64,000 nucleotides of DNA from Escherichia coli (lineage in GTDB: Bacteria; Pseudomonadota; Gammaproteobacteria; Enterobacterales; Enterobacteriaceae): NCBI RefSeq assembly GCF_016903815.1, contig NZ_CP069973.1; one strand, written 5' to 3'. Position numbers and translations under genes: made by a program. Under the pieces are notes generated by a model. That model ran no database searches. It saw only the letters and a list, made by a program, of their open reading frames with translations, and had not been told where the DNA came from. Of this stretch, positions 36,415-48,814 are shown piece by piece. Within the stretch, counting starts at the first letter, position 1, and each line of letters opens with the position of its first letter.

Positions 36415-37224
36415 TCACTCCCCGACCAGAATCACTTCAACCCCAGCCTTTCGCAGCCCTTCCAGGCTATCCGCAGGAATGCCTTCATCAACAATGATCA
36501 TGTCGATACGTTGAGTATCAATGATCTTATGTAAACTGGAACGATTGAATTTACTGGAATCGGTGACCACGATGATCCGTTCCGCAACTTCGCACATCCG
36601 GCGGTTTAAACGGGCTTCATCTTCATTATGCGTACTGACGCCGCGCTCCAGATCGATCGCATCTACGCCAAGAAACAGCATATCGAAGTGGTAATTTTGC
36701 AGCGATTGTTCAGCCTGATCGCCGTAAAAAGATTGCGACTGACGGCGCAAATGCCCGCCGGTCATCAGCAGCTCAACGCCTTCCGCTTCCAGCAACGCAT
36801 TAGCCACGTTCATACCGTTGGTCATCGCAATTACGTCAGTGTGCTTGCGCATCAGACGAGCAATCTCAAAAGTGGTGGTCCCGGAATCGAGGATCACCCG
36901 ATGACCTGGCTGAATCAACTCAACGGCAGCTTTCGCAACGCTGCGTTTCATCGCGGTGTTCAGCGCGCTTTTATCTTCCACTGATGGCTCGACTGACGGC
37001 GTGGTGCTATCGCAGATCAACGCGCCGCCATAGGCACGCACAGCGATCCCCTGCTTTTCCAGAAACGCCAGATCGTTGCGGATCGTCACAGTAGATACGC
37101 CATACAATGCCGACAGATCGTTAACCTGCACACTCCCTTGCTGTCGCAGACGCTGAATGATCTGTTCTCGTCGCTCGCTGGTGCCTGTCATTCGCTTCTC
37201 ACCTGAAGCGTCGGTATTACTCAT
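36415..37224 (-). CDS. agaR: DeoR-family repressor of aga genes
   Basis: 269-aa [62 protein letters not shown]... Confidence 0.92.
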
Positions 37225-37472
37225 AGTAAGTCCTTTCGTAAAACTTTCGTTTCATTTCGTTTTGCCTATTAACGCCTTTCTATTAAGCAAATGCAAGCCC
37301 ACCTTACCCATTGGCGCAAGCTACTCTCGTTTCAGTGGCTTTCATTATGTTTCTTTTGTGAATCAGATCAGAAAACTATTATCTTTCGTTTTATTTTTAT
37401 CTCACCATGGCGCAGTATCAACTGAAACAAAACGAAAGATTAATATCGCAGTAATCTGAACTGGAGAGGAAA
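37225..37472. promoter_or_regulatory. agaR/kbaZ divergent control region with repeated AgaR-type operator motifs
   Basis: Repeated tttcgtttcatttcgtttt, tctttcgttttattttt and aaacaaaacgaaagatt blocks resembling the remembered AgaR site pattern (TTTCRTTTYRTTTY). Confidence 0.65.
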
Positions 37473-38753
37473 GTGAAACATCTGACAGAAATGGTGAGAC
37501 AGCACAAAGAGGGCAAAACAAATGGGATTTATGCCGTTTGTTCCGCACATCCGCTGGTGCTGGAAGCTGCAATCCGCTACGCCAGTGCAAACCAAACGCC
37601 GTTACTGATTGAAGCAACCTCCAATCAGGTAGACCAGTTCGGCGGTTATACCGGAATGACGCCCGCCGATTTTCGCGGCTTTGTTTGTCAGCTCGCCGAC
37701 TCGTTGAATTTCCCACAGGATGCGTTGATTCTGGGTGGCGACCATCTGGGTCCAAACCGCTGGCAAAGCCTGCCTGCCGCTCAGGCAATGGCCAATGCCG
37801 ATGATTTGATTAAAAGCTACGTGGCGGCAGGATTCAAAAAAATTCACCTTGATTGCAGCATGTCCTGTCAGGACGATCCAATTCCCTTAACTGATGACAT
37901 CGTGGCTGAACGCGCCGCACGTCTGGCGAAAGTGGCGGAAGAAACCTGTCTTGAACACTTTGGCGAAGCCGATCTGGAGTATGTCATTGGTACCGAAGTA
38001 CCGGTACCTGGCGGCGCGCATGAAACCTTAAGCGAGCTGGCGGTCACCACGCCGGATGCCGCCCGCGCCACGCTGGAAGCCCATCGTCACGCCTTTGAAA
38101 AGCAAGGTTTGAATGCCATCTGGTCACGCATCATTGCCCTGGTGGTTCAACCCGGCGTCGAATTCGATCACACCAACGTTATTGATTATCAGCCCGCCAA
38201 AGCGAGCGCCTTAAGCCAGATGGTCGAAAACTACGAAACGCTGATTTTCGAAGCGCACTCTACCGATTATCAAACGCCGCAATCGCTGCGCCAGCTGGTG
38301 ATTGACCACTTTGCCATTCTGAAAGTTGGCCCGGCGCTGACCTTCGCCCTGCGTGAAGCTCTGTTCTCTCTGGCGGCGATTGAAGAAGAACTGGTACCAG
38401 CGAAAGCCTGTTCCGGTCTGCGTCAGGTGCTGGAAAACGTGATGCTCGACCGCCCGGAATACTGGCAAAGCCACTACCACGGTGACGGCAACGCACGTCG
38501 CCTGGCGCGTGGTTATAGCTACTCGGATCGCGTGCGCTATTACTGGCCGGACAGCCAGATTGATGACGCTTTCGCTCATCTGGTTCGTAATCTGGCGGAT
38601 TCACCAATTCCGCTACCGCTCATCAGCCAGTATCTGCCGCTGCAATACGTGAAAGTTCGCTCCGGCAAGCTGCAACCGACGCCACGGGAACTCATTATCA
38701 ACCATATTCAGGACATCCTGGCGCAGTACCACACAGCCTGTGAAGGCCAATAA
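37473..38753 (+). CDS. kbaZ: tagatose-1,6-bisphosphate aldolase accessory subunit
   Basis: 426-aa ORF from GTG; [62 protein letters not shown]... Confidence 0.9.
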
Positions 38754-38775
38754 GCAAAACAAAGAGGAACACGCT

Positions 38776-39249
38776 ATGCCAAATATTGTTTTAAGCCGGA
38801 TTGATGAACGCTTGATTCACGGTCAGGTCGGCGTTCAGTGGGTCGGATTTGCGGGGGCAAATCTGGTGCTGGTAGCCAACGATGAGGTTGCCGAAGATCC
38901 GGTACAACAAAACCTGATGGAAATGGTACTGGCAGAAGGGATCGCCGTACGTTTCTGGACGCTGCAAAAAGTCATCGACAACATTCATCGCGCCGCCGAT
39001 CGACAGAAAATCCTGCTGGTTTGTAAAACACCTGCCGATTTCCTGACGCTGGTGAAAGGTGGCGTTCCGGTGAATCGCATTAACGTTGGCAATATGCACT
39101 ACGCCAATGGCAAGCAACAAATCGCCAAAACGGTTTCTGTGGATGCGGGCGATATCGCAGCATTTAACGACCTGAAAGCCGCTGGGGTGGAATGCTTCGT
39201 TCAGGGCGTCCCGACAGAGCCTGCTGTGGACCTCTTTAAATTACTTTGA
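38776..39249 (+). CDS. agaV: PTS N-acetylgalactosamine-specific EIIB
   Basis: ORF 38740..39249; MPNIVLSRIDERLIHGQVGVQWVGFAGANLVLVAND... (157 aa). Confidence 0.9.
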   Translation: MPNIVLSRIDERLIHGQVGVQWVGFAGANLVLVANDEVAEDPVQQNLMEMVLAEGIAVRFWTLQKVIDNIHRAADRQKILLVCKTPADFLTLVKGGVPVNRINVGNMHYANGKQQIAKTVSVDAGDIAAFNDLKAAGVECFVQGVPTEPAVDLFKLL

Positions 39250-39259
39250 GGGATTCATC

Positions 39260-40039
39260 ATGGAAATCAGTCTGTTGCAGGCATTCGCGTTGGGCATTAT
39301 CGCCTTTATCGCTGGCCTGGATATGTTTAACGGCTTAACCCATATGCACCGCCCGGTGGTCCTCGGCCCATTGGTCGGGCTGGTACTTGGCGATCTGCAT
39401 ACCGGTATTTTAACCGGCGGTACGCTGGAACTGGTGTGGATGGGGCTGGCCCCGCTGGCAGGCGCACAACCGCCTAACGTGATTATCGGTACTATCGTCG
39501 GCACGGCGTTTGCCATTACTACTGGCGTGAAACCCGATGTCGCGGTCGGTGTCGCCGTACCTTTCGCTGTCGCAGTACAGATGGGGATTACCTTCCTGTT
39601 CTCGGTGATGTCTGGCGTGATGTCCCGCTGCGACCGGATGGCGGAGAACGCCGATACACGCGGCATTGAACGCGTGAACTATCTGGCATTGCTGGCACTC
39701 GGCACTTTCTATTTTCTCTGCGCTTTCCTGCCTATCTACTTCGGCGCAGAACATGCCAAAACCATCATTGATGTCCTGCCGCAACGATTAATCGACGGCC
39801 TCGGCGTCGCGGGCGGCATCATGCCAGCAATCGGTTTTGCCGTGCTGCTGAAAATCATGATGAAAAACGTCTACATCCCCTACTTCATCCTGGGCTTTGT
39901 TGCCGCAGCCTGGCTCAAGTTACCTGTGCTGGCTATTGCTGCCGCCGCGCTGGCGATGGCGCTGATCGACCTGCTGCGTAAATCTCCTGAACCGACTCAA
40001 CCTGCGGCACAGAAAGAGGAATTTGAAGATGGCATCTAA
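39260..40039 (+). CDS. agaW: PTS N-acetylgalactosamine-specific EIIC (full length)
   Basis: 259-aa ORF MEISLLQAFALGIIAFIAGLDMFNGLTHMHRPVVLGPLVGLVLGD...; mannose-family IIC. Confidence 0.88.
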   Translation: MEISLLQAFALGIIAFIAGLDMFNGLTHMHRPVVLGPLVGLVLGDLHTGILTGGTLELVWMGLAPLAGAQPPNVIIGTIVGTAFAITTGVKPDVAVGVAVPFAVAVQMGITFLFSVMSGVMSRCDRMAENADTRGIERVNYLALLALGTFYFLCAFLPIYFGAEHAKTIIDVLPQRLIDGLGVAGGIMPAIGFAVLLKIMMKNVYIPYFILGFVAAAWLKLPVLAIAAAALAMALIDLLRKSPEPTQPAAQKEEFEDGI

Positions 40040-40907
40040 TCAAACCACCCTGCCGAACGTCAGTGAAAACGAAGAAACACTGCTGACTGGCGTCAATGAA
40101 AACGTGTATGAAGATCAGAGCATTGGCGCGGAGCTGACGAAAAAAGATATCAACCGCGTCGCCTGGCGTTCCATGCTGTTACAAGCGTCTTTTAACTACG
40201 AACGTATGCAGGCTTCTGGCTGGTTGTACGGTCTGCTGCCTGCTCTGAAAAAGATCCACACTAATAAACGCGACCTGGCGCGCGCCATGAAAGGGCATAT
40301 GGGTTTCTTCAATACCCATCCGTTTCTGGTGACGTTTGTTATCGGCATTATCCTTGCGATGGAGCGTTCTAAGCAGGACGTTAACAGTATTCAGAGCACC
40401 AAAATTGCCGTCGGTGCGCCGCTCGGCGGGATTGGCGATGCGATGTTCTGGCTAACGCTACTGCCGATTTGTGGCGGGATAGGCGCAAGCCTCGCGCTAC
40501 AAGGCTCTATTCTTGGCGCTGTCGTCTTTATTGTGCTGTTCAACGTGGTGCACCTGGGGCTGCGTTTTGGTCTGGCGCATTATGCTTACCGCATGGGCGT
40601 GGCGGCGATTCCACTCATTAAAGCAAATACCAAAAAAGTCGGCCATGCGGCATCTATCGTTGGGATGACGGTAATCGGCGCGCTGGTGGCAACCTATGTT
40701 CGTTTAAGCACCACGCTGGAAATCACCGCGGGCGACGCAGTGGTTAAGTTACAGGCTGATGTTATCGACAAACTGATGCCAGCCTTCTTACCGCTGGTCT
40801 ACACCCTGACCATGTTCTGGCTGGTACGCCGCGGCTGGAGTCCGCTGCGCCTGATTGCGATTACCGTGGTTCTCGGCATCGTCGGTAAATTCTGCCATTT
40901 CCTTTAA
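40029..40907 (+). CDS. agaE: PTS N-acetylgalactosamine-specific EIID
   Basis: ORF 40023..40907; MASNQTTLPNVSENEETLLTG... mannose-family IID; overlaps agaW end. Confidence 0.88.
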   Translation: MASNQTTLPNVSENEETLLTGVNENVYEDQSIGAELTKKDINRVAWRSMLLQASFNYERMQASGWLYGLLPALKKIHTNKRDLARAMKGHMGFFNTHPFLVTFVIGIILAMERSKQDVNSIQSTKIAVGAPLGGIGDAMFWLTLLPICGGIGASLALQGSILGAVVFIVLFNVVHLGLRFGLAHYAYRMGVAAIPLIKANTKKVGHAASIVGMTVIGALVATYVRLSTTLEITAGDAVVKLQADVIDKLMPAFLPLVYTLTMFWLVRRGWSPLRLIAITVVLGIVGKFCHFL

Positions 40908-40924
40908 ATACAATGAGGTATTAG

Positions 40925-41359
40925 ATGTTAAGTATTATTTTGACAGGGCATGGCGGATTTGCCAGCGGCATGGAAAAAGCAATGAAGCAAATCCTCGGCG
41001 AGCAATCGCAGTTTATTGCCATCGATTTTCCCGAAACCTCAAGCACCGCGCTGCTTACATCGCAGCTTGAAGAGGCCATCGCCCAACTCGATTGTGAAGA
41101 CGGCATTGTTTTTCTGACGGATTTGCTGGGCGGCACGCCGTTTCGCGTAGCTTCAACGCTGGCGATGCAAAAACCGGGCTGTGAAGTGATCACCGGCACC
41201 AATTTGCAACTGCTACTGGAGATGGTGCTGGAGCGCGAAGGGTTAAGCGGTGAAGAGTTCCGTGTGCAGGCGCTGGAGTGTGGACATCGTGGGCTGACCA
41301 GTCTGGTGGACGAGTTAGGCCGCTGCCATGAAGAATGTCCGGTCGAGGAAGGAATATGA
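40925..41359 (+). CDS. agaF: PTS EIIA component (mannose family)
   Basis: 144-aa ORF MLSIILTGHGGFASGMEKAMKQILGEQSQFIAIDFPETSS... Confidence 0.88.
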   Translation: MLSIILTGHGGFASGMEKAMKQILGEQSQFIAIDFPETSSTALLTSQLEEAIAQLDCEDGIVFLTDLLGGTPFRVASTLAMQKPGCEVITGTNLQLLLEMVLEREGLSGEEFRVQALECGHRGLTSLVDELGRCHEECPVEEGI

Positions 41360-42489
41360 CACACGTTCTGCGCGCCAGAAGGCTGCTGACTGAAGAGGGA
41401 TGGCTCGATGACCATCAGTTGCGTATTGCTGACGGTGTAATCGCAGCAATCGAACCGATTCCAGTGGGCGTGACTGAACGCGATGCGGAACTGCTCTGCC
41501 CCGCTTACATCGACACCCATGTACATGGTGGTGCGGGCGTTGATGTAATGGATGACGCGCCGGATGTGCTCGACAAGCTGGCAATGCACAAAGCACGCGA
41601 AGGTGTCGGCAGTTGGTTACCGACCACCGTAACCGCGCCGCTTAATACCATTCATGCGGCGCTGAAACGTATTGCTCAACGTTGCCAACGCGGCGGACCT
41701 GGTGCGCAAGTGCTGGGGAGTTATCTCGAAGGACCGTACTTCACGCCGCAGAATAAAGGCGCGCATCCGCCGGAGCTGTTTCGCGAGCTGGAAATTGCCG
41801 AGCAGGATCAATTGATTGCCGTTTCTCAGCACACCTTGCGCGTGGTAGCGCTGGCACCGGAAAAAGAAGGGGCATTGCAGGCCATCCGCCATCTTAAACA
41901 GCAAAACGTACGGGTGATGCTGGGGCATAGCGCGGCGACCTGGCAACAAACCCGTGCCGCGTTTGACGCTGGTGCCGACGGCCTGGTGCATTGCTATAAC
42001 GGGATGACAGGTTTACATCACCGCGAACCGGGAATGGTTGGCGCGGGATTAACGGACAAGCGCGCCTGGCTGGAACTGATAGCCGATGGTCATCATGTGC
42101 ATCCGGCGGCGATGTCGCTGTGTTGTTGCTGTGCGAAAGAGAGAATCGTGCTGATCACCGACGCGATGCAGGCAGCCGGGATGCCGGATGGTCGCTATAC
42201 GTTATGTGGCGAAGAAGTGCAGATGCACGGTGGCGTTGTCCGTACCGCGTCCGGTGGACTGGCGGGCAGTACGCTGTCTGTTGATGCGGCAGTGCGCAAT
42301 ATGGTCGAGTTGACGGACGTAACGCCTGCGGAAGCCATCCATATGGCGTCGCTGCATCCGGCGCGTATGCTGGGTGTTGATGATGTTCTGGGATCGCTTA
42401 AACCGGGCAAACGCGCCAGCGTCGTTGCGCTGGATAGCGGGCTGCATGTGCAACAAATCTGGATTCAGGGTCAATTAGCTTCGTTTTGA
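41356..42489 (+). CDS. agaA: N-acetylgalactosamine-6-phosphate deacetylase (full length)
   Basis: ORF 41335..42489; MTHVLRARRLLTEEGWLDDHQLRIADGVIAAIEP... (377 aa), NagA-like; start overlaps agaF stop (ATGA). Confidence 0.88.
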   Translation: MTHVLRARRLLTEEGWLDDHQLRIADGVIAAIEPIPVGVTERDAELLCPAYIDTHVHGGAGVDVMDDAPDVLDKLAMHKAREGVGSWLPTTVTAPLNTIHAALKRIAQRCQRGGPGAQVLGSYLEGPYFTPQNKGAHPPELFRELEIAEQDQLIAVSQHTLRVVALAPEKEGALQAIRHLKQQNVRVMLGHSAATWQQTRAAFDAGADGLVHCYNGMTGLHHREPGMVGAGLTDKRAWLELIADGHHVHPAAMSLCCCCAKERIVLITDAMQAAGMPDGRYTLCGEEVQMHGGVVRTASGGLAGSTLSVDAAVRNMVELTDVTPAEAIHMASLHPARMLGVDDVLGSLKPGKRASVVALDSGLHVQQIWIQGQLASF

Positions 42490-42562
42490 TGGTTTGCTCC
42501 TTTATTGGGCCTTCACTTCCCCCGTAAGGCCTTTCTTTTTCTTTCTTTTTGATCTGTGCAGC

Positions 42563-42620
42563 GGTGTCGGATGCGACGCTGACGCGTCTTATGCGACCTA
42601 CGGTACGCCGCATCCGGCAA
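42563..42620. repeat. REP palindromic element
   Basis: gtcggatgcgacgctgacgcgtcttatgcgacctacggtacgccgcatccggca. Confidence 0.75.
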
Positions 42621-42649
42621 TCGGTGCACATAGCAACGTCATCATGCAA

Positions 42650-42839
42650 TTCTTTAATCTTCCCTTGTCTTTTCTTTCAACGATCACAAATTTCGTTTTA
42701 TTTCTTTTTTCTCCATTGAACTTTCAGTTTCTTTTCTATAGATTTTAATCAACGAAAGACATCACCAAATGAAATGAAACGAAAGGTAAGCGAAAGCGAC
42801 AACGCCCGACGTCAAGTTCATCAGACTAAGGATTGAGTT
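42650..42839. promoter_or_regulatory. agaS promoter region with AgaR-type operator repeats
   Basis: aaatttcgttttatttctttt and inverted tttcgtttcatttcatttggtg blocks upstream of agaS. Confidence 0.65.
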
Positions 42840-43994
42840 ATGCCAGAAAATTACACCCCTGCTGCTGCCGCAACCGGTACATGGACTGAAGAAGAGATCC
42901 GCCATCAGCCTCGCGCATGGATCCGTTCACTCACCAACATCGACGCGCTACGTTCCGCGCTCAATAACTTCCTTGAACCGTTACTGCGCAAAGAGAATCT
43001 GCGGGTAATCCTGACCGGAGCCGGAACCTCGGCATTTATCGGTGACATCATCGCGCCGTGGCTCGCCAGCCATACCGATAAAAACTTCAGCGCCGTACCG
43101 ACCACCGATCTGGTCACCAATCCGATGGACTACCTGAATCCAGCTCATCCACTGCTGTTGATCTCCTTCGGTCGATCCGGCAACAGCCCGGAAAGCGTCG
43201 CCGCCGTGGAACTGGCAAATCAATTTGTACCCGAGTGCTATCACCTGCCGATCACCTGCAACGAAGCGGGCGCTCTTTACCAAAACGCGATCAACAGCGA
43301 CAACGCGTTTGCCCTGCTGATGCCCGCAGAAACGCACGATCGCGGCTTTGCGATGACCAGCAGCATTACCACCATGATGGCCAGCTGCCTCGCGGTTTTC
43401 GCACCTGAGACGATCAACAGCCAGAGCTTCCGCGACGTGGCGGATCGTTGCCAGGCGATCCTGACCTCACTGGGCGATTTCAGCGAAGGTGTGTTTGGTT
43501 ACGCACCGTGGAAACGGATCGTTTATCTCGGCAGCGGTGGCTTACAGGGCGCAGCACGCGAGTCGGCGCTGAAAGTACTGGAACTGACGGCGGGTAAACT
43601 GGCGGCCTTTTATGATTCCCCGACCGGATTCCGTCATGGCCCGAAATCGCTGGTCGATAACGAAACGCTGGTGGTGGTATTTGTCTCCAGCCACCCTTAC
43701 ACCCGCCAGTATGATCTTGATCTGCTGGCTGAACTTCGTCGTGACAACCAGGCAATGCGCGTAATCGCTATCGCCGCGGAAAGCAACGACGTTATTACCG
43801 CCGGTCCACATATCATCCTGCCGCCGTCACGTCACTTTATCGACGTTGAGCAGGCATTTTGCTTCCTGATGTACGCCCAGACGTTTGCACTGATGCAGTC
43901 GCTGCACATGGGCAATACGCCGGATACCCCATCAGCCAGTGGCACCGTTAACCGCGTGGTGCAAGGCGTAATCATTCATCCGTGGCAGGCATAA
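42840..43994 (+). CDS. agaS: galactosamine-6-phosphate deaminase/isomerase (SIS domains)
   Basis: 384-aa ORF MPENYTPAAAATGTWTEEEIRHQPRAWIRSLTNIDALRSALNNFLEP... Confidence 0.9.
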   Translation: MPENYTPAAAATGTWTEEEIRHQPRAWIRSLTNIDALRSALNNFLEPLLRKENLRVILTGAGTSAFIGDIIAPWLASHTDKNFSAVPTTDLVTNPMDYLNPAHPLLLISFGRSGNSPESVAAVELANQFVPECYHLPITCNEAGALYQNAINSDNAFALLMPAETHDRGFAMTSSITTMMASCLAVFAPETINSQSFRDVADRCQAILTSLGDFSEGVFGYAPWKRIVYLGSGGLQGAARESALKVLELTAGKLAAFYDSPTGFRHGPKSLVDNETLVVVFVSSHPYTRQYDLDLLAELRRDNQAMRVIAIAAESNDVITAGPHIILPPSRHFIDVEQAFCFLMYAQTFALMQSLHMGNTPDTPSASGTVNRVVQGVIIHPWQA

Positions 43995-44867
<873 letters not shown>

Positions 44868-45033
44868 TCATTAGTTTTTTATGATTTATCCCAATGTACT
44901 TCCCGATTAATATCGGGGAGTGCCTTAATGGTAAAGGAGATAACTAAACCTTAATAAATACATCAGTACAATACCGCAACAATAATATATTTAAAAAGAT
45001 TATATTATTCAACTTTATGGTGAGGATTACACA

Positions 45034-45510
45034 ATGAGCAGTCCAAATATTCTCTTAACCCGTATTGATAACCGTCTGGTTCACGGTCAGGTTGGCGTGA
45101 CCTGGACATCCACCATCGGTGCGAATCTGCTGGTAGTCGTGGATGATGTTGTCGCTAACGATGATATTCAACAGAAATTAATGGGTATTACCGCAGAAAC
45201 CTACGGCTTTGGCATTCGTTTCTTTACTATCGAAAAAACCATTAACGTCATCGGCAAAGCTGCACCGCATCAGAAGATCTTCCTGATTTGCCGCACGCCA
45301 CAAACGGTACGTAAATTGGTAGAAGGTGGCATTGACCTGAAAGATGTCAACGTCGGCAATATGCATTTCTCGGAAGGGAAAAAGCAAATCAGCAGTAAAG
45401 TTTATGTCGATGACCAGGATCTCACGGACTTACGTTTTATTAAACAACGTGGCGTGAATGTTTTCATTCAGGACGTCCCTGGCGATCAAAAAGAACAAAT
45501 CCCTGACTAA
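45034..45510 (+). CDS. agaB: PTS galactosamine-specific EIIB
   Basis: 158-aa ORF MSSPNILLTRIDNRLVHGQVGVTWTSTIGANLLVVVDD... Confidence 0.9.
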   Translation: MSSPNILLTRIDNRLVHGQVGVTWTSTIGANLLVVVDDVVANDDIQQKLMGITAETYGFGIRFFTIEKTINVIGKAAPHQKIFLICRTPQTVRKLVEGGIDLKDVNVGNMHFSEGKKQISSKVYVDDQDLTDLRFIKQRGVNVFIQDVPGDQKEQIPD

Positions 45511-45548
45511 ATCTAAAATCGCCTTAATATTGGTTTGAGGTAATAAAA

Positions 45549-46352
45549 ATGCATGAAATAACCCTACTTCAGGGATTATCCCTGGCGGCGTTAGTTTTCG
45601 TTCTGGGGATTGATTTTTGGCTGGAAGCCTTATTTTTATTCCGCCCGATAATCGTTTGTACCCTAACTGGCGCTATTCTCGGTGATATTCAGACTGGCTT
45701 AATTACCGGTGGTCTGACAGAGTTGGCTTTCGCCGGATTAACCCCTGCAGGTGGTGTTCAGCCGCCCAACCCGATTATGGCGGGTCTGATGACCACTGTC
45801 ATTGCATGGTCTACGGGCGTTGATGCCAAAACGGCAATTGGTCTTGGCCTGCCGTTTAGTTTGTTAATGCAGTACGTCATTCTGTTCTTCTATTCCGCTT
45901 TCTCATTATTTATGACCAAAGCCGATAAATGCGCAAAAGAGGCGGATACGGCAGCGTTTTCCCGACTTAACTGGACAACGATGCTCATCGTCGCTTCAGC
46001 GTATGCGGTGATTGCTTTCCTCTGTACTTACCTGGCACAGGGGGCGATGCAGGCGCTGGTGAAAGCGATGCCCGCCTGGCTGACCCACGGCTTTGAAGTG
46101 GCTGGCGGTATTCTGCCTGCCGTTGGTTTTGGCTTGCTGCTGCGCGTGATGTTCAAAGCGCAATATATCCCTTACCTGATCGCCGGTTTCCTGTTTGTTT
46201 GCTACATCCAGGTCAGCAACCTGTTGCCGGTTGCCGTACTGGGCGCAGGCTTTGCGGTGTATGAGTTTTTCAATGCGAAATCCCGGCAGCAAGCGCAACC
46301 GCAGCCCGTTGCCAGTAAAAATGAAGAAGAGGACTACAGCAATGGGATCTGA
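45549..46352 (+). CDS. agaC: PTS galactosamine-specific EIIC
   Basis: 267-aa ORF MHEITLLQGLSLAALVFVLGIDFWLEALFLFRPIIVCTLTGAILGD... Confidence 0.9.
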   Translation: MHEITLLQGLSLAALVFVLGIDFWLEALFLFRPIIVCTLTGAILGDIQTGLITGGLTELAFAGLTPAGGVQPPNPIMAGLMTTVIAWSTGVDAKTAIGLGLPFSLLMQYVILFFYSAFSLFMTKADKCAKEADTAAFSRLNWTTMLIVASAYAVIAFLCTYLAQGAMQALVKAMPAWLTHGFEVAGGILPAVGFGLLLRVMFKAQYIPYLIAGFLFVCYIQVSNLLPVAVLGAGFAVYEFFNAKSRQQAQPQPVASKNEEEDYSNGI

Positions 46353-47133
46353 AATCAGTAAAAAAGATATCACCCGTCTGGGCTTTCGTTCGTCACTGCT
46401 GCAAGCGAGCTTTAATTACGAAAGGATGCAGGCGGGCGGTTTTACCTGGGCGATGTTGCCGATCCTGAAAAAGATTTATAAGGACGACAAACCGGGCCTA
46501 AGCGCGGCGATGAAAGATAACCTCGAATTTATTAATACCCACCCGAATCTGGTCGGATTCCTGATGGGGTTATTAATTTCGATGGAAGAAAAAGGAGAAA
46601 ACCGCGACACCATTAAAGGCCTCAAAGTAGCACTGTTTGGCCCAATCGCCGGGATTGGCGATGCGATTTTCTGGTTTACCTTATTGCCGATTATGGCGGG
46701 AATTTGCTCATCATTTGCCAGCCAGGGAAACTTGCTGGGGCCGATTCTATTTTTCGCCGTTTACCTGCTTATCTTTTTCCTGCGCGTCGGCTGGACCCAC
46801 GTCGGTTATTCAGTCGGCGTGAAGGCGATCGATAAAGTGCGAGAGAACTCGCAGATGATTGCTCGCTCGGCAACCATCCTCGGGATCACGGTAATCGGCG
46901 GGCTGATCGCTTCGTATGTGCATATTAACGTGGTGACATCGTTTGCCATCGACAGTACCCACAGCGTCGCGCTGCAACAGGATTTCTTCGATAAAGTCTT
47001 CCCGAACATTTTACCGATGGCCTACACCCTGCTGATGTATTACTTTCTGCGGGTGAAAAAAGCGCATCCGGTGCTGTTAATCGGCGTGACTTTTGTGCTC
47101 TCTATTGTTTGTTCCGCATTCGGCATTTTGTAA
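46342..47133 (+). CDS. agaD: PTS galactosamine-specific EIID
   Basis: ORF 46195..47133; MGSEISKKDITRLGFRSSLLQASFNYERMQAGGFTWAMLPILKK... (263 aa); overlaps agaC end. Confidence 0.9.
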   Translation: MGSEISKKDITRLGFRSSLLQASFNYERMQAGGFTWAMLPILKKIYKDDKPGLSAAMKDNLEFINTHPNLVGFLMGLLISMEEKGENRDTIKGLKVALFGPIAGIGDAIFWFTLLPIMAGICSSFASQGNLLGPILFFAVYLLIFFLRVGWTHVGYSVGVKAIDKVRENSQMIARSATILGITVIGGLIASYVHINVVTSFAIDSTHSVALQQDFFDKVFPNILPMAYTLLMYYFLRVKKAHPVLLIGVTFVLSIVCSAFGIL

Positions 47134-47901
47134 ATGGAACGAGGCACTGCGTCTGGTGGTGCCTCTTTACTTAAGGAATTTCATCCTGTGCAAACCCTTC
47201 AGCAAGTTGAAAACTATATGGCGTTAAGTGAACGTGCCAGCGAATATTTATTGGCCGTGATCCGTAGCAAACCGGATGCCGTGATTTGCCTGGCGACCGG
47301 AGCCACGCCATTACTGACGTATCATTATCTGGTAGAAAAAATCCACCAGCAGCAGGTTGATGTCAGCCAGCTCACCTTCGTGAAGCTCGACGAATGGGTG
47401 GATCTGCCATTAACTATGCCTGGTACCTGCGAAACTTTCCTGCAACAGCATATCGTGCAGCCGCTGGGGCTGCGTGAAGACCAGCTCATCAGCTTTCGCT
47501 CCGAAGAGATAAATGAGACAGAGTGCGAACGGGTAACGCACCTGATTGCGCGCAAAGGCGGTCTGGATTTATGCGTTCTCGGGTTGGGGAAAAACGGTCA
47601 TCTTGGGCTGAACGAACCGGGAGAAAGCCTGCAACCGGCCTGCCATATCAGTCAACTTGATGCCAGAACACAGCAACATGAGATGTTAAAAACCGCGGGC
47701 CGTCCCGTGACTCGTGGGATCACCTTAGGCCTGAAGGATATTCTCAATGCCCGCGAAGTTTTGTTACTGGTGACTGGCGAAGGAAAGCAGGATGCGACAG
47801 AACGTTTTCTCACGGCTAAAGTCTCTACCGCTATCCCGGCTTCATTTTTATGGCTGCATAACTATTTCACATGCATGATTGATGAGATGTGTCGTCGTTA
47901 A
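47134..47901 (+). CDS. agaI: putative galactosamine-6-phosphate deaminase/isomerase (NagB-like)
   Basis: 255-aa ORF MERGTASGGASLLKEFHPVQTLQQVENYMALSERASEYLLAVIRSKPDAVICLATGATP... Confidence 0.88.
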   Translation: MERGTASGGASLLKEFHPVQTLQQVENYMALSERASEYLLAVIRSKPDAVICLATGATPLLTYHYLVEKIHQQQVDVSQLTFVKLDEWVDLPLTMPGTCETFLQQHIVQPLGLREDQLISFRSEEINETECERVTHLIARKGGLDLCVLGLGKNGHLGLNEPGESLQPACHISQLDARTQQHEMLKTAGRPVTRGITLGLKDILNAREVLLLVTGEGKQDATERFLTAKVSTAIPASFLWLHNYFTCMIDEMCRR

Positions 47902-47950
47902 CTCGCCTGCTACAGGCGTTGCAACGCTATTCCTGCTGCGACGCCTGTAA

Positions 47951-48814
47951 TCACTCTCCCTGCTGCTCCAGTGCATACTTATACAGCGCATTTTTCTTCA
48001 CGCCGTGAATTTCTGCTGCCAGCGCCGCCGCTTTTTTCAGCGGCAGTTCTGCCTGTAGCAGCGCCAGCGTGCGCAGGGCATCAGCAGGCAGGTCATCTTC
48101 CTGCGCTTTATGGCCTTCGACAATCAGCACCATTTCGCCTTTGCGACGGTTTTCATCTTCTTTGACCCACGCCAGCAGCTCGCCAACGGGCGCGCCGTGA
48201 ATGGTTTCCCAGGTTTTGGTCAGCTCACGCGCCAGAACGACGTAGCGGGATTCGCCTAATACCGCAACGATATCTTCCAGGCTATCTAACAGACGGTGGG
48301 TAGATTCATAAAAAATCAGCGTGCGCGGCTCCGCTTCAATGGCTTTTAGCGCATCACGGCGGCCTTTTGATTTGGCAGGTAAAAAGCCTTCATAACAAAA
48401 ACGATCGGATGGTAAACCCGCGGCGCTTAACGCAGTGATAGCAGCACACGGCCCGGGTAGCGGCACCACGCGAATCCCCGCTTCACGGCAGGTACGCACC
48501 AGATGGTAGCCAGGATCGTTAATTAGCGGCGTTCCGGCATCGGAAACCAGCGCAATGTTTTGCCCCTCTTGCAGCTTCGCCAGCAGCGTTTCGGCTTTTT
48601 GTTGTTCGTTATGGTCGTGCAGCGCAAACAACCGAGCATTAATCCCAAAATGTTGCAGCAATAAACCGGTGTGACGCGTATCCTCGGCGGCAATCAGATC
48701 AACGGCCTGTAATACCTCCAACGCACGCTGGGTGATATCCGCCAGATTGCCGATTGGCGTCGGTACAATGTAAAGCTGGCCCTGAGAATTATCCGCCGAT
48801 TGGTGTTGTTTCAT
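47951..48814 (-). CDS. rsmI: 16S rRNA (cytidine1402-2'-O)-methyltransferase
   Basis: 287-aa [53 protein letters not shown]... Confidence 0.92.

Follow-up and report, generated by a model that had tools for sequence, protein, structure and literature searches.

Does the 49-bp gap that separates agaI from rsmI in this strain of Escherichia coli, at the place where K-12 has the yraHIJK fimbrial operon, record the loss of that operon or a state in which it had never arrived, and what is the hairpin that fills the gap? The window (the whole 64,000-nt stretch of DNA that was analysed) carries the two genes in convergent orientation, with agaI at the end of an aga cluster that is complete, and both have NCBIfam matches well above cut-off (Table 1). 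The TAA stop codon of agaI ends at 47901 and that of rsmI, TCA on the + strand, begins at 47951; sequence and open reading frames thus bear out the first-pass annotation, which had placed the two stops 49 bp apart. Across positions 31400-64000, E. coli strain 7/2, an isolate from human faeces in Sweden, differs at 2 of 32,601 bases, and its PGAP annotation has exactly these agaI and rsmI genes and the complete aga cluster. The first-pass annotation was also correct in placing the yra operon of K-12 between the two genes, the gene order in MG1655 being agaI-yraH-yraI-yraJ-yraK-rsmI. Our best explanation, to which we give a joint probability of about 0.7, is that the window has the "empty" allele at a chromosomal slot that accepts several alternative contents and is bordered by the core genes agaI and rsmI, that the empty order is ancestral, that alleles are exchanged as blocks, and that the hairpin is a 3′-end structure.

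Alignment with K-12 shows where the two haplotypes part. The flanks are collinear and free of indels on both sides, with 98.4% identity over 4,995 bp on the left and 97.7% over 1,520 bp on the right, and divergence stays at the ordinary inter-lineage level up to the breakpoints, with no rise beside the junction that would be a sign of long-term linkage. By alignment and flank profile, homology breaks sharply at 47858/47859, where DNA identity drops from ~98% to ~47% (the latter figure being a manual codon-wise count), and it resumes at 47957/47958. The variable block extends beyond the spacer at both ends, into the final 14 codons of agaI and the final codon of rsmI. AgaI ends in NYFTCMIDEMCRR in the window and in SNFICLINT in K-12, and both tails keep an xFxCxIx pattern. 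When the 99-bp block was sought in the yra segment of K-12, no match beyond chance was found (best local score 15, equal to the maximum of 15 reached by shuffled sequence). The GC content of the K-12 block is 45%, falling to 27% in its agaI-yraH intergenic region, and that of the window is 51%. K-12 and its relatives thus carry at this site a 5.5-kb block composed of an AT-rich regulatory region and yraHIJK, with an agaI tail that is divergent and an rsmI terminator that belongs to the block.

Table 1. Features of the agaI-rsmI junction, in window coordinates
Feature	Position	Strand	Basis or remark
agaI (galactosamine-6-phosphate isomerase)	47134..47901	+	ORF of 255 aa; NCBIfam NF007291 equivalog, E 1.3e-141
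agaI haplotype-specific 3′ tail	47859..47901	+	K-12 alignment and flank profile
Whole variable block, 99 bp, in place of the 5,484-bp yraHIJK block of K-12 (locus L001, 4996-10479)	47859..47957		
Intergenic spacer, 49 bp, between convergent stops	47902..47950		Sequence
Hairpin left arm (TACAGGCGTTGCAAC)	47911..47925		Folds, pair counts, pattern search
Hairpin loop (GCTATTCCT), 9 nt	47926..47934		8 of 9 positions invariant in 10 aligned alleles; the first varies in one allele
Hairpin right arm (GCTGCGACGCCTGTA)	47935..47949		Folds, pair counts, pattern search
rsmI (16S rRNA C1402 2′-O-methyltransferase)	47951..48814	-	ORF of 287 aa; NCBIfam NF011570 equivalog, E 6.3e-190
rsmI haplotype-specific end (last codon, E, and stop)	47951-47957	-	Junction comparison; RsmI of K-12 has 286 aa

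The same site was followed through 5,426 complete E. coli genomes, nearly all of which (~5,421) fall into four allele classes. The yra block is present in 3,523 (65%) and at least 80% intact in 3,264; K-12, O157:H7 and the W derivative LY180 all have yra between agaI and rsmI. Some match to the 99-bp block of the window was found in 1,869 genomes, at one place per genome throughout, and 1,821 (~34%) have at least 80% of it. Identity to the window falls into bands at 100%, ~95% and ~92%: 568 genomes reach at least 99%, 76 lie at 95-99% and 1,223 at 90-95%, and this divergence of the empty allele within E. coli is itself evidence of age. CFT073, a reference uropathogenic strain of phylogroup B2, has a ~92% variant. 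The two rarer classes are a 2.4-kb block encoding a LysR regulator and an MBL-fold hydrolase, found in 64 of the 5,426 genomes, and a 0.85-kb block encoding a Gp49/HigB-like toxin and an HTH_3 antitoxin, found in 13. Contiguous agaI-rsmI junctions number 1,835 and so exceed the hairpin alleles by 14, because the toxin-antitoxin allele is so short that matches on its two sides merge into a single place; an empty site that lacks the hairpin was found in none of the 5,426 genomes, and at most about one contiguous junction (1,835 versus 1,821 plus 13) is left unexplained.

The alleles are linked to the ends of the genes that flank them. All empty, LysR-MBL and toxin-antitoxin haplotypes, and E. 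albertii, have the agaI tail of the window, and all yra haplotypes have the AT-rich tail. The LysR-MBL and toxin-antitoxin haplotypes also retain the 287-aa rsmI, and their blocks have flanking sequence in common, ~143 bp on the left and ~70 bp on the right. The spacer is not kept beside any cargo. With four alternative contents in E. coli and a fifth in another Escherichia, the junction deserves the name of hotspot suggested for it in the first-pass annotation. Features of mobile elements, such as att repeats or a target-site duplication, are absent from the slot, where border words do not go beyond 7-8 nt, and no integrase or transposase is annotated within intact alleles.

Some particulars of the rarer alleles may be recorded here. 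The LysR-MBL allele is exemplified by E. coli wlxctx60 (L004, 6044-8464), where the regulator is transcribed divergently from the hydrolase and the block is limited by the stop codons of agaI and rsmI. The hydrolase has 318 aa and belongs to Lactamase_B, with a faint match to the anti-Pycsar protein Apyc1 below cut-off. The toxin and antitoxin of the smallest cargo (L006 and L007, 3001-3851) have 148 and 100 aa. O145:H28 strain RM12581 (L008, 1016-4040) and its relatives have malX-like and malY/patB-like genes in place of agaB (which is truncated), agaC, agaD and agaI; this replacement adjoins the LysR-MBL block and represents a larger remodelling of the same neighbourhood.

These data bear directly on the possibility that a K-12-like ancestor lost the operon in one precise deletion, of which the spacer would be the scar. 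Only the difference in gene order itself favours this account, besides the observation that secondary damage to yra does occur, since in ~259 genomes IS insertions or partial deletions have left under 80% of the block (for example H104-H109). Against it, the K-12 block lacks the 99 bp at 47859-47957, the haplotypes differ in agaI tail and rsmI end, the borders of the K-12 block have no direct repeats (no shared words longer than 7-8 nt), the same spacer occurs in E. albertii, and the hairpin and toxin-antitoxin alleles together cover the contiguous junctions bar about one. Because the 99 bp have no K-12 counterpart, a simple clean deletion from K-12-like sequence is excluded, and we hold the account as a whole to be extremely improbable. 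Fimbrial remnants or direct repeats, which the first-pass annotation had proposed to look for at the agaI-rsmI junction, were not found: the window junction has no convincing fimbrial remnant, and there are no convincing remnants of the spacer at the junctions or inside the yra, LysR-MBL or toxin-antitoxin cargo. One candidate, a 38-nt match to the spacer in the LysR-MBL cargo, was heavily gapped, lay inside the hydrolase coding sequence and was judged to be due to chance.

Outgroups bear on the direction of change. An AgaI scan of species-representative genomes yielded six loci, and at three of these (E. albertii, Escherichia sp. E1V33 and strain E69) agaI adjoins rsmI through the same 49-bp hairpin spacer, which matches that of the window at 48, 46 and 39 of 49 positions, respectively. 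Trabulsiella odontotermitis has agaI (64% amino acid identity), then ~135 bp with two REP-like units, and then rsmI, with no fimbrial genes. E. whittamii carries yraHIJK with 83-90% amino acid identity, its operon being 80-85% identical to K-12 in DNA versus 88-94% for the flanking genes. The sixth locus, in Escherichia sp. MOD1-EC7003 (L013, 11137-16149), has in the agaI-rsmI site a yra-like chaperone-usher operon with 53-65% amino acid identity to YraHIJK, which is a highly diverged form of yra or else a separate fimbrial type. Across species, the AT-rich agaI tail accompanies yra and the GC-richer tail accompanies the other alleles.

Since the same hairpin spacer occurs in E. albertii, E1V33 and E69, and agaI and rsmI are adjacent in Trabulsiella, the empty agaI-rsmI order is in all probability the ancestral gene order. 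The empty-hairpin and yra alleles both predate the species of Escherichia, or have been exchanged across them. One observation against an ancestral empty state is that the C-terminus of Trabulsiella RsmI (286 aa, ending in QQG) agrees with the yra haplotypes and not with the hairpin haplotype. The first-pass annotation had left two choices, that the strain never acquired the operon or that it lost it cleanly. The spacer in E. albertii and other Escherichia and the adjacency in Trabulsiella favour the former, and the 99 bp that lack a K-12 counterpart argue against the latter. As to mechanism, each allele most likely moves as one block, through homologous recombination between conserved flanks and not as part of a mobile element; the window strain, accordingly, most likely never had yra at this site.

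It is also possible that a yra-bearing ancestor was converted to the empty state through homologous recombination with the DNA of a strain that had the empty allele, an allelic replacement that could occur without a scar. In its favour, homology ends sharply and agaI tail, cargo and rsmI end are linked as a block, which shows that alleles move as units; both alleles occur in several Escherichia species; and the yra operon of E. whittamii is barely more diverged from K-12 than its flanks are, indicating that yra is old in the genus. Published reconstructions place yra instead as a gain of the E/B1/A lineage (PMC6896753). The empty allele is moreover widespread and internally diverged, as fits long residence in lineages without yra, and among the data examined such a conversion has no direct evidence. 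We regard it as distinctly unlikely. The published distribution is of interest in this context: carriers of the yra block belong, according to the literature, to phylogroups A, B1, C and E, Yra is reported to be missing from B2 and low in D (PMC8767327), and expression of yraH, yraJ and yraK has been detected in urinary isolates of A and B1 (PMC4128348). Neither allele is confined to E. coli (E. whittamii has yra), and yra may for that reason be a long-standing polymorphism rather than the gain of one lineage. We continue to favour an ancestral empty order for the window.

We now turn to the hairpin. The first-pass annotation had read an inverted repeat, acaggcgt (47913-47920) and acgcctgt (47942-47949), as a bidirectional terminator; the repeat is present, and the real arms are longer than these 8-mers. 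The stem has 15 positions, of which 14 are paired and one is an A.C mismatch in this strain, and it begins 9 nt past the agaI stop and 1 nt past the rsmI stop. Predicted folding energies are -23.9 kcal/mol (z -4.75) for the + strand and -24.3 kcal/mol (z -3.84) for the - strand, and none of 200 dinucleotide shuffles was as good on either strand, showing that the hairpin is more than a product of chance. It is kept in all 10 aligned alleles, where 94% of pair cells are standard versus 15-47% with slid partners, and its stability ranges from -28.8 kcal/mol in E. albertii, which has a perfect 16-bp stem, through -23.9 kcal/mol in the window to -18.4 kcal/mol in BH100. Alleles from B2 have weakened stems (-18 to -21 kcal/mol), with changes that pile up in the left arm. 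Compensatory change is limited to one pair, G-C to A-U, in E69, and covariation in the 10 alleles is not significant, 62 of 500 shuffles also reaching one compensatory pair. Compared with the flanking genes, the spacer is more conserved in E. albertii (98% versus ~91%) and less so in E69 (80% versus ~93%). Taken by themselves, these sequence comparisons would lend weak support to selection on the hairpin structure. A search of Rfam 15 at a permissive E-value gave best scores of 13.7 and 12.3 bits (E ~8-9), far below gathering.

A classical bidirectional intrinsic (Rho-independent) terminator serving both agaI and rsmI is the reading that the position of the element first brings to mind, with a stable, GC-rich stem-loop lying just downstream of two convergent stops and conserved across Escherichia. 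The element nevertheless lacks a T-run past the stem on both strands (ATCACTCTCCC on the +, GCAGGCGAGTTAACG on the -): the + strand tail 3′ of the stem is AAUCACUCUCCC, with no U-tract, and the - strand, for which an A-tract 5′ of the stem would be expected on the +, has the tail GCAGGCGAGUUAACG, again with no U-tract. A terminator scan made no call for the window hairpin or for the perfect-stem allele of E. albertii, yet the same scan called the unrelated hairpin that the K-12 block has between yraK and rsmI, which is followed by CTTCTTTTAC. The hairpin of the first-pass annotation is therefore real, but its designation as a bidirectional terminator did not hold up against the missing T-runs and the negative scan, and we consider that designation unlikely to be right.

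A serious rival sees in the hairpin the relic of a palindrome in decay, such as a degenerate REP-like unit, that has no function itself. Two REP-like units occupy the same intergenic position in Trabulsiella, the left-arm mutations of B2 alleles and of the window are uncompensated, the covariation lacks significance, and a short motif of the hairpin, CCTGCTGCGACGC, shows some resemblance, over 13 nt, to the REP half-site CCTGATGCGACGC. The arm geometry, however, is unlike that of REP, and at least 13 pairs are kept in most alleles, even in that of E69, which has 10 changes in 49 bp including the compensatory pair; the closeness of the E. albertii spacer, well above that of its flanking genes, likewise speaks against decay. 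Nor does the element behave as a repeat. When the arm pattern was sought with up to 3 mismatches in the 64-kb window, the hairpin itself and one match at chance level were recovered, and the 99-bp query found one place per genome in 1,869 genomes, in a blastn search whose E-value limit short diverged copies would escape. We think it doubtful, on balance, that the hairpin is such a relic. The Trabulsiella spacer (L014, 10673-10810) is itself of some interest, in that its two REP-like units, which contain GCCTGATGGCGCTTCGCTTATCCGGCCTAC and GTAGGCCGGATAAGGCGTTATCGCCGTCATCCGGC, are inverted.

Our preferred reading of the hairpin is that the 49-bp spacer is an Escherichia-specific stem-loop placed directly past both stops and, as it lacks U-tracts, would most likely serve as a shared 3′-end structure for two convergent transcripts. 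In this putative role it could stop trimming by 3′-exonucleases after factor-dependent or inefficient termination, and could also limit antisense read-through, in place of acting as a classical intrinsic bidirectional terminator. From the anatomy of the element and general knowledge of 3′ hairpins without U-tracts, a stabilising or processing stem-loop appears the more likely function.

It is also conceivable that the slot has a wider significance. One could regard it as a trans-species, multi-allelic cargo site of Escherichia, in which five alleles (empty with hairpin; yraHIJK; the yra-like operon of 53-65% identity; LysR with MBL-fold hydrolase; and the HigBA-like toxin-antitoxin pair) would have been kept or exchanged as blocks for longer than the species have existed, the blocks being bounded exactly by the two stop-codon regions and the hairpin being a functional element, an RNA 3′ end or a 3′UTR-derived RNA, and not filler. 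Taken as a whole, this combination of claims is speculative and we advance it tentatively.

Several known systems offer points of comparison. The presence/absence polymorphism of yra in E. coli concerns the same locus, with K-12, O157:H7 and LY180 on one side and CFT073 and the window on the other; published accounts of it deal with the presence or absence of genes, to which the present comparison adds allele boundaries, the hairpin and two rarer cargoes. The boundaries within the agaI tail and the rsmI codon, the hairpin of the empty allele and the two rare cargoes seem not to have been described in the published accounts that we found. The searched text of Wurpel et al. 2013 (PMC3559732) makes no mention of Yra or its flanking genes, and our literature search returned nothing relevant on the agaI/rsmI junction itself.

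The integration hotspots of E. coli between core genes, of which Touchon et al. 2009 reportedly give an example, share with the slot collinear core flanks, unrelated alternating cargoes and a lineage-structured distribution. Unlike them, the slot has no integrase, tRNA, att repeat or IS at its borders, its contents appear to be exchanged through flanking homology, and its alleles are common to several Escherichia species. Bidirectional intrinsic terminators resemble the hairpin in forming a symmetric GC-rich structure directly after two convergent stops, but are defined by the A-tract and U-tract that it lacks on both sides. REP/BIME elements and other 3′ stem-loops stabilise mRNA against 3′-exonucleases. 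The hairpin is like them in lying between convergent genes, in its stable stem without a U-tract and in having REP-like units as its positional counterpart in Trabulsiella; it differs in being single-copy and in lacking the REP arm layout, and its stabilising role is putative.

The strain difference at agaI-rsmI is ordinary and already documented: the presence or absence of yra is known, and reference genomes of long standing already have the empty junction in annotated form. What the comparison makes clear is that the K-12 order is not the norm of the species, since about one-third of complete genomes, including that of CFT073, have agaI abutting rsmI, and that the state without yra is an old allele and not a deletion, a point of relevance to any scoring of Yra fimbriae as lineage marker or adhesin trait. 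There is little significance beyond bookkeeping. Minor additions are the exact boundaries, the two rare cargoes and the conservation of the hairpin across the genus, which could be used as a neat illustration of how alleles are exchanged in blocks where two core genes meet.

A few observations on the neighbourhood remain. In E. coli EC25 (L005, 4031-5110), an agaI of K-12 type is followed after 150 bp by an IS1 element that connects it with a truncated mtr; this implies that IS1 has mediated a deletion or rearrangement from yra through yhbW. Of the 8,861 places that match the agaI-rsmI junction, one is on a plasmid-labelled record, probably a mislabelled or misassembled replicon. Within agaS, positions 43614-43863 of the window have 17 mismatches to K-12 in 250 bp, where stretches of that length in the rest of the aga flank have 1-6, a cluster that may be a small recombination tract. 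By annotation transferred from strain 7/2, the prlF-yhaV type II toxin-antitoxin pair (35561-36360) lies just upstream of agaR, as in K-12, and is ordinary. The aga/kba cluster of the window (36415-47901; same source of annotation) is complete, with agaR, kbaZ, agaV, agaW, agaE, agaF, agaA/nagA, agaS, kbaY, agaBCD and agaI. K-12 has the agaW-agaA deletion, and because the cluster is complete here, the window strain should, we predict, be able to use N-acetylgalactosamine.
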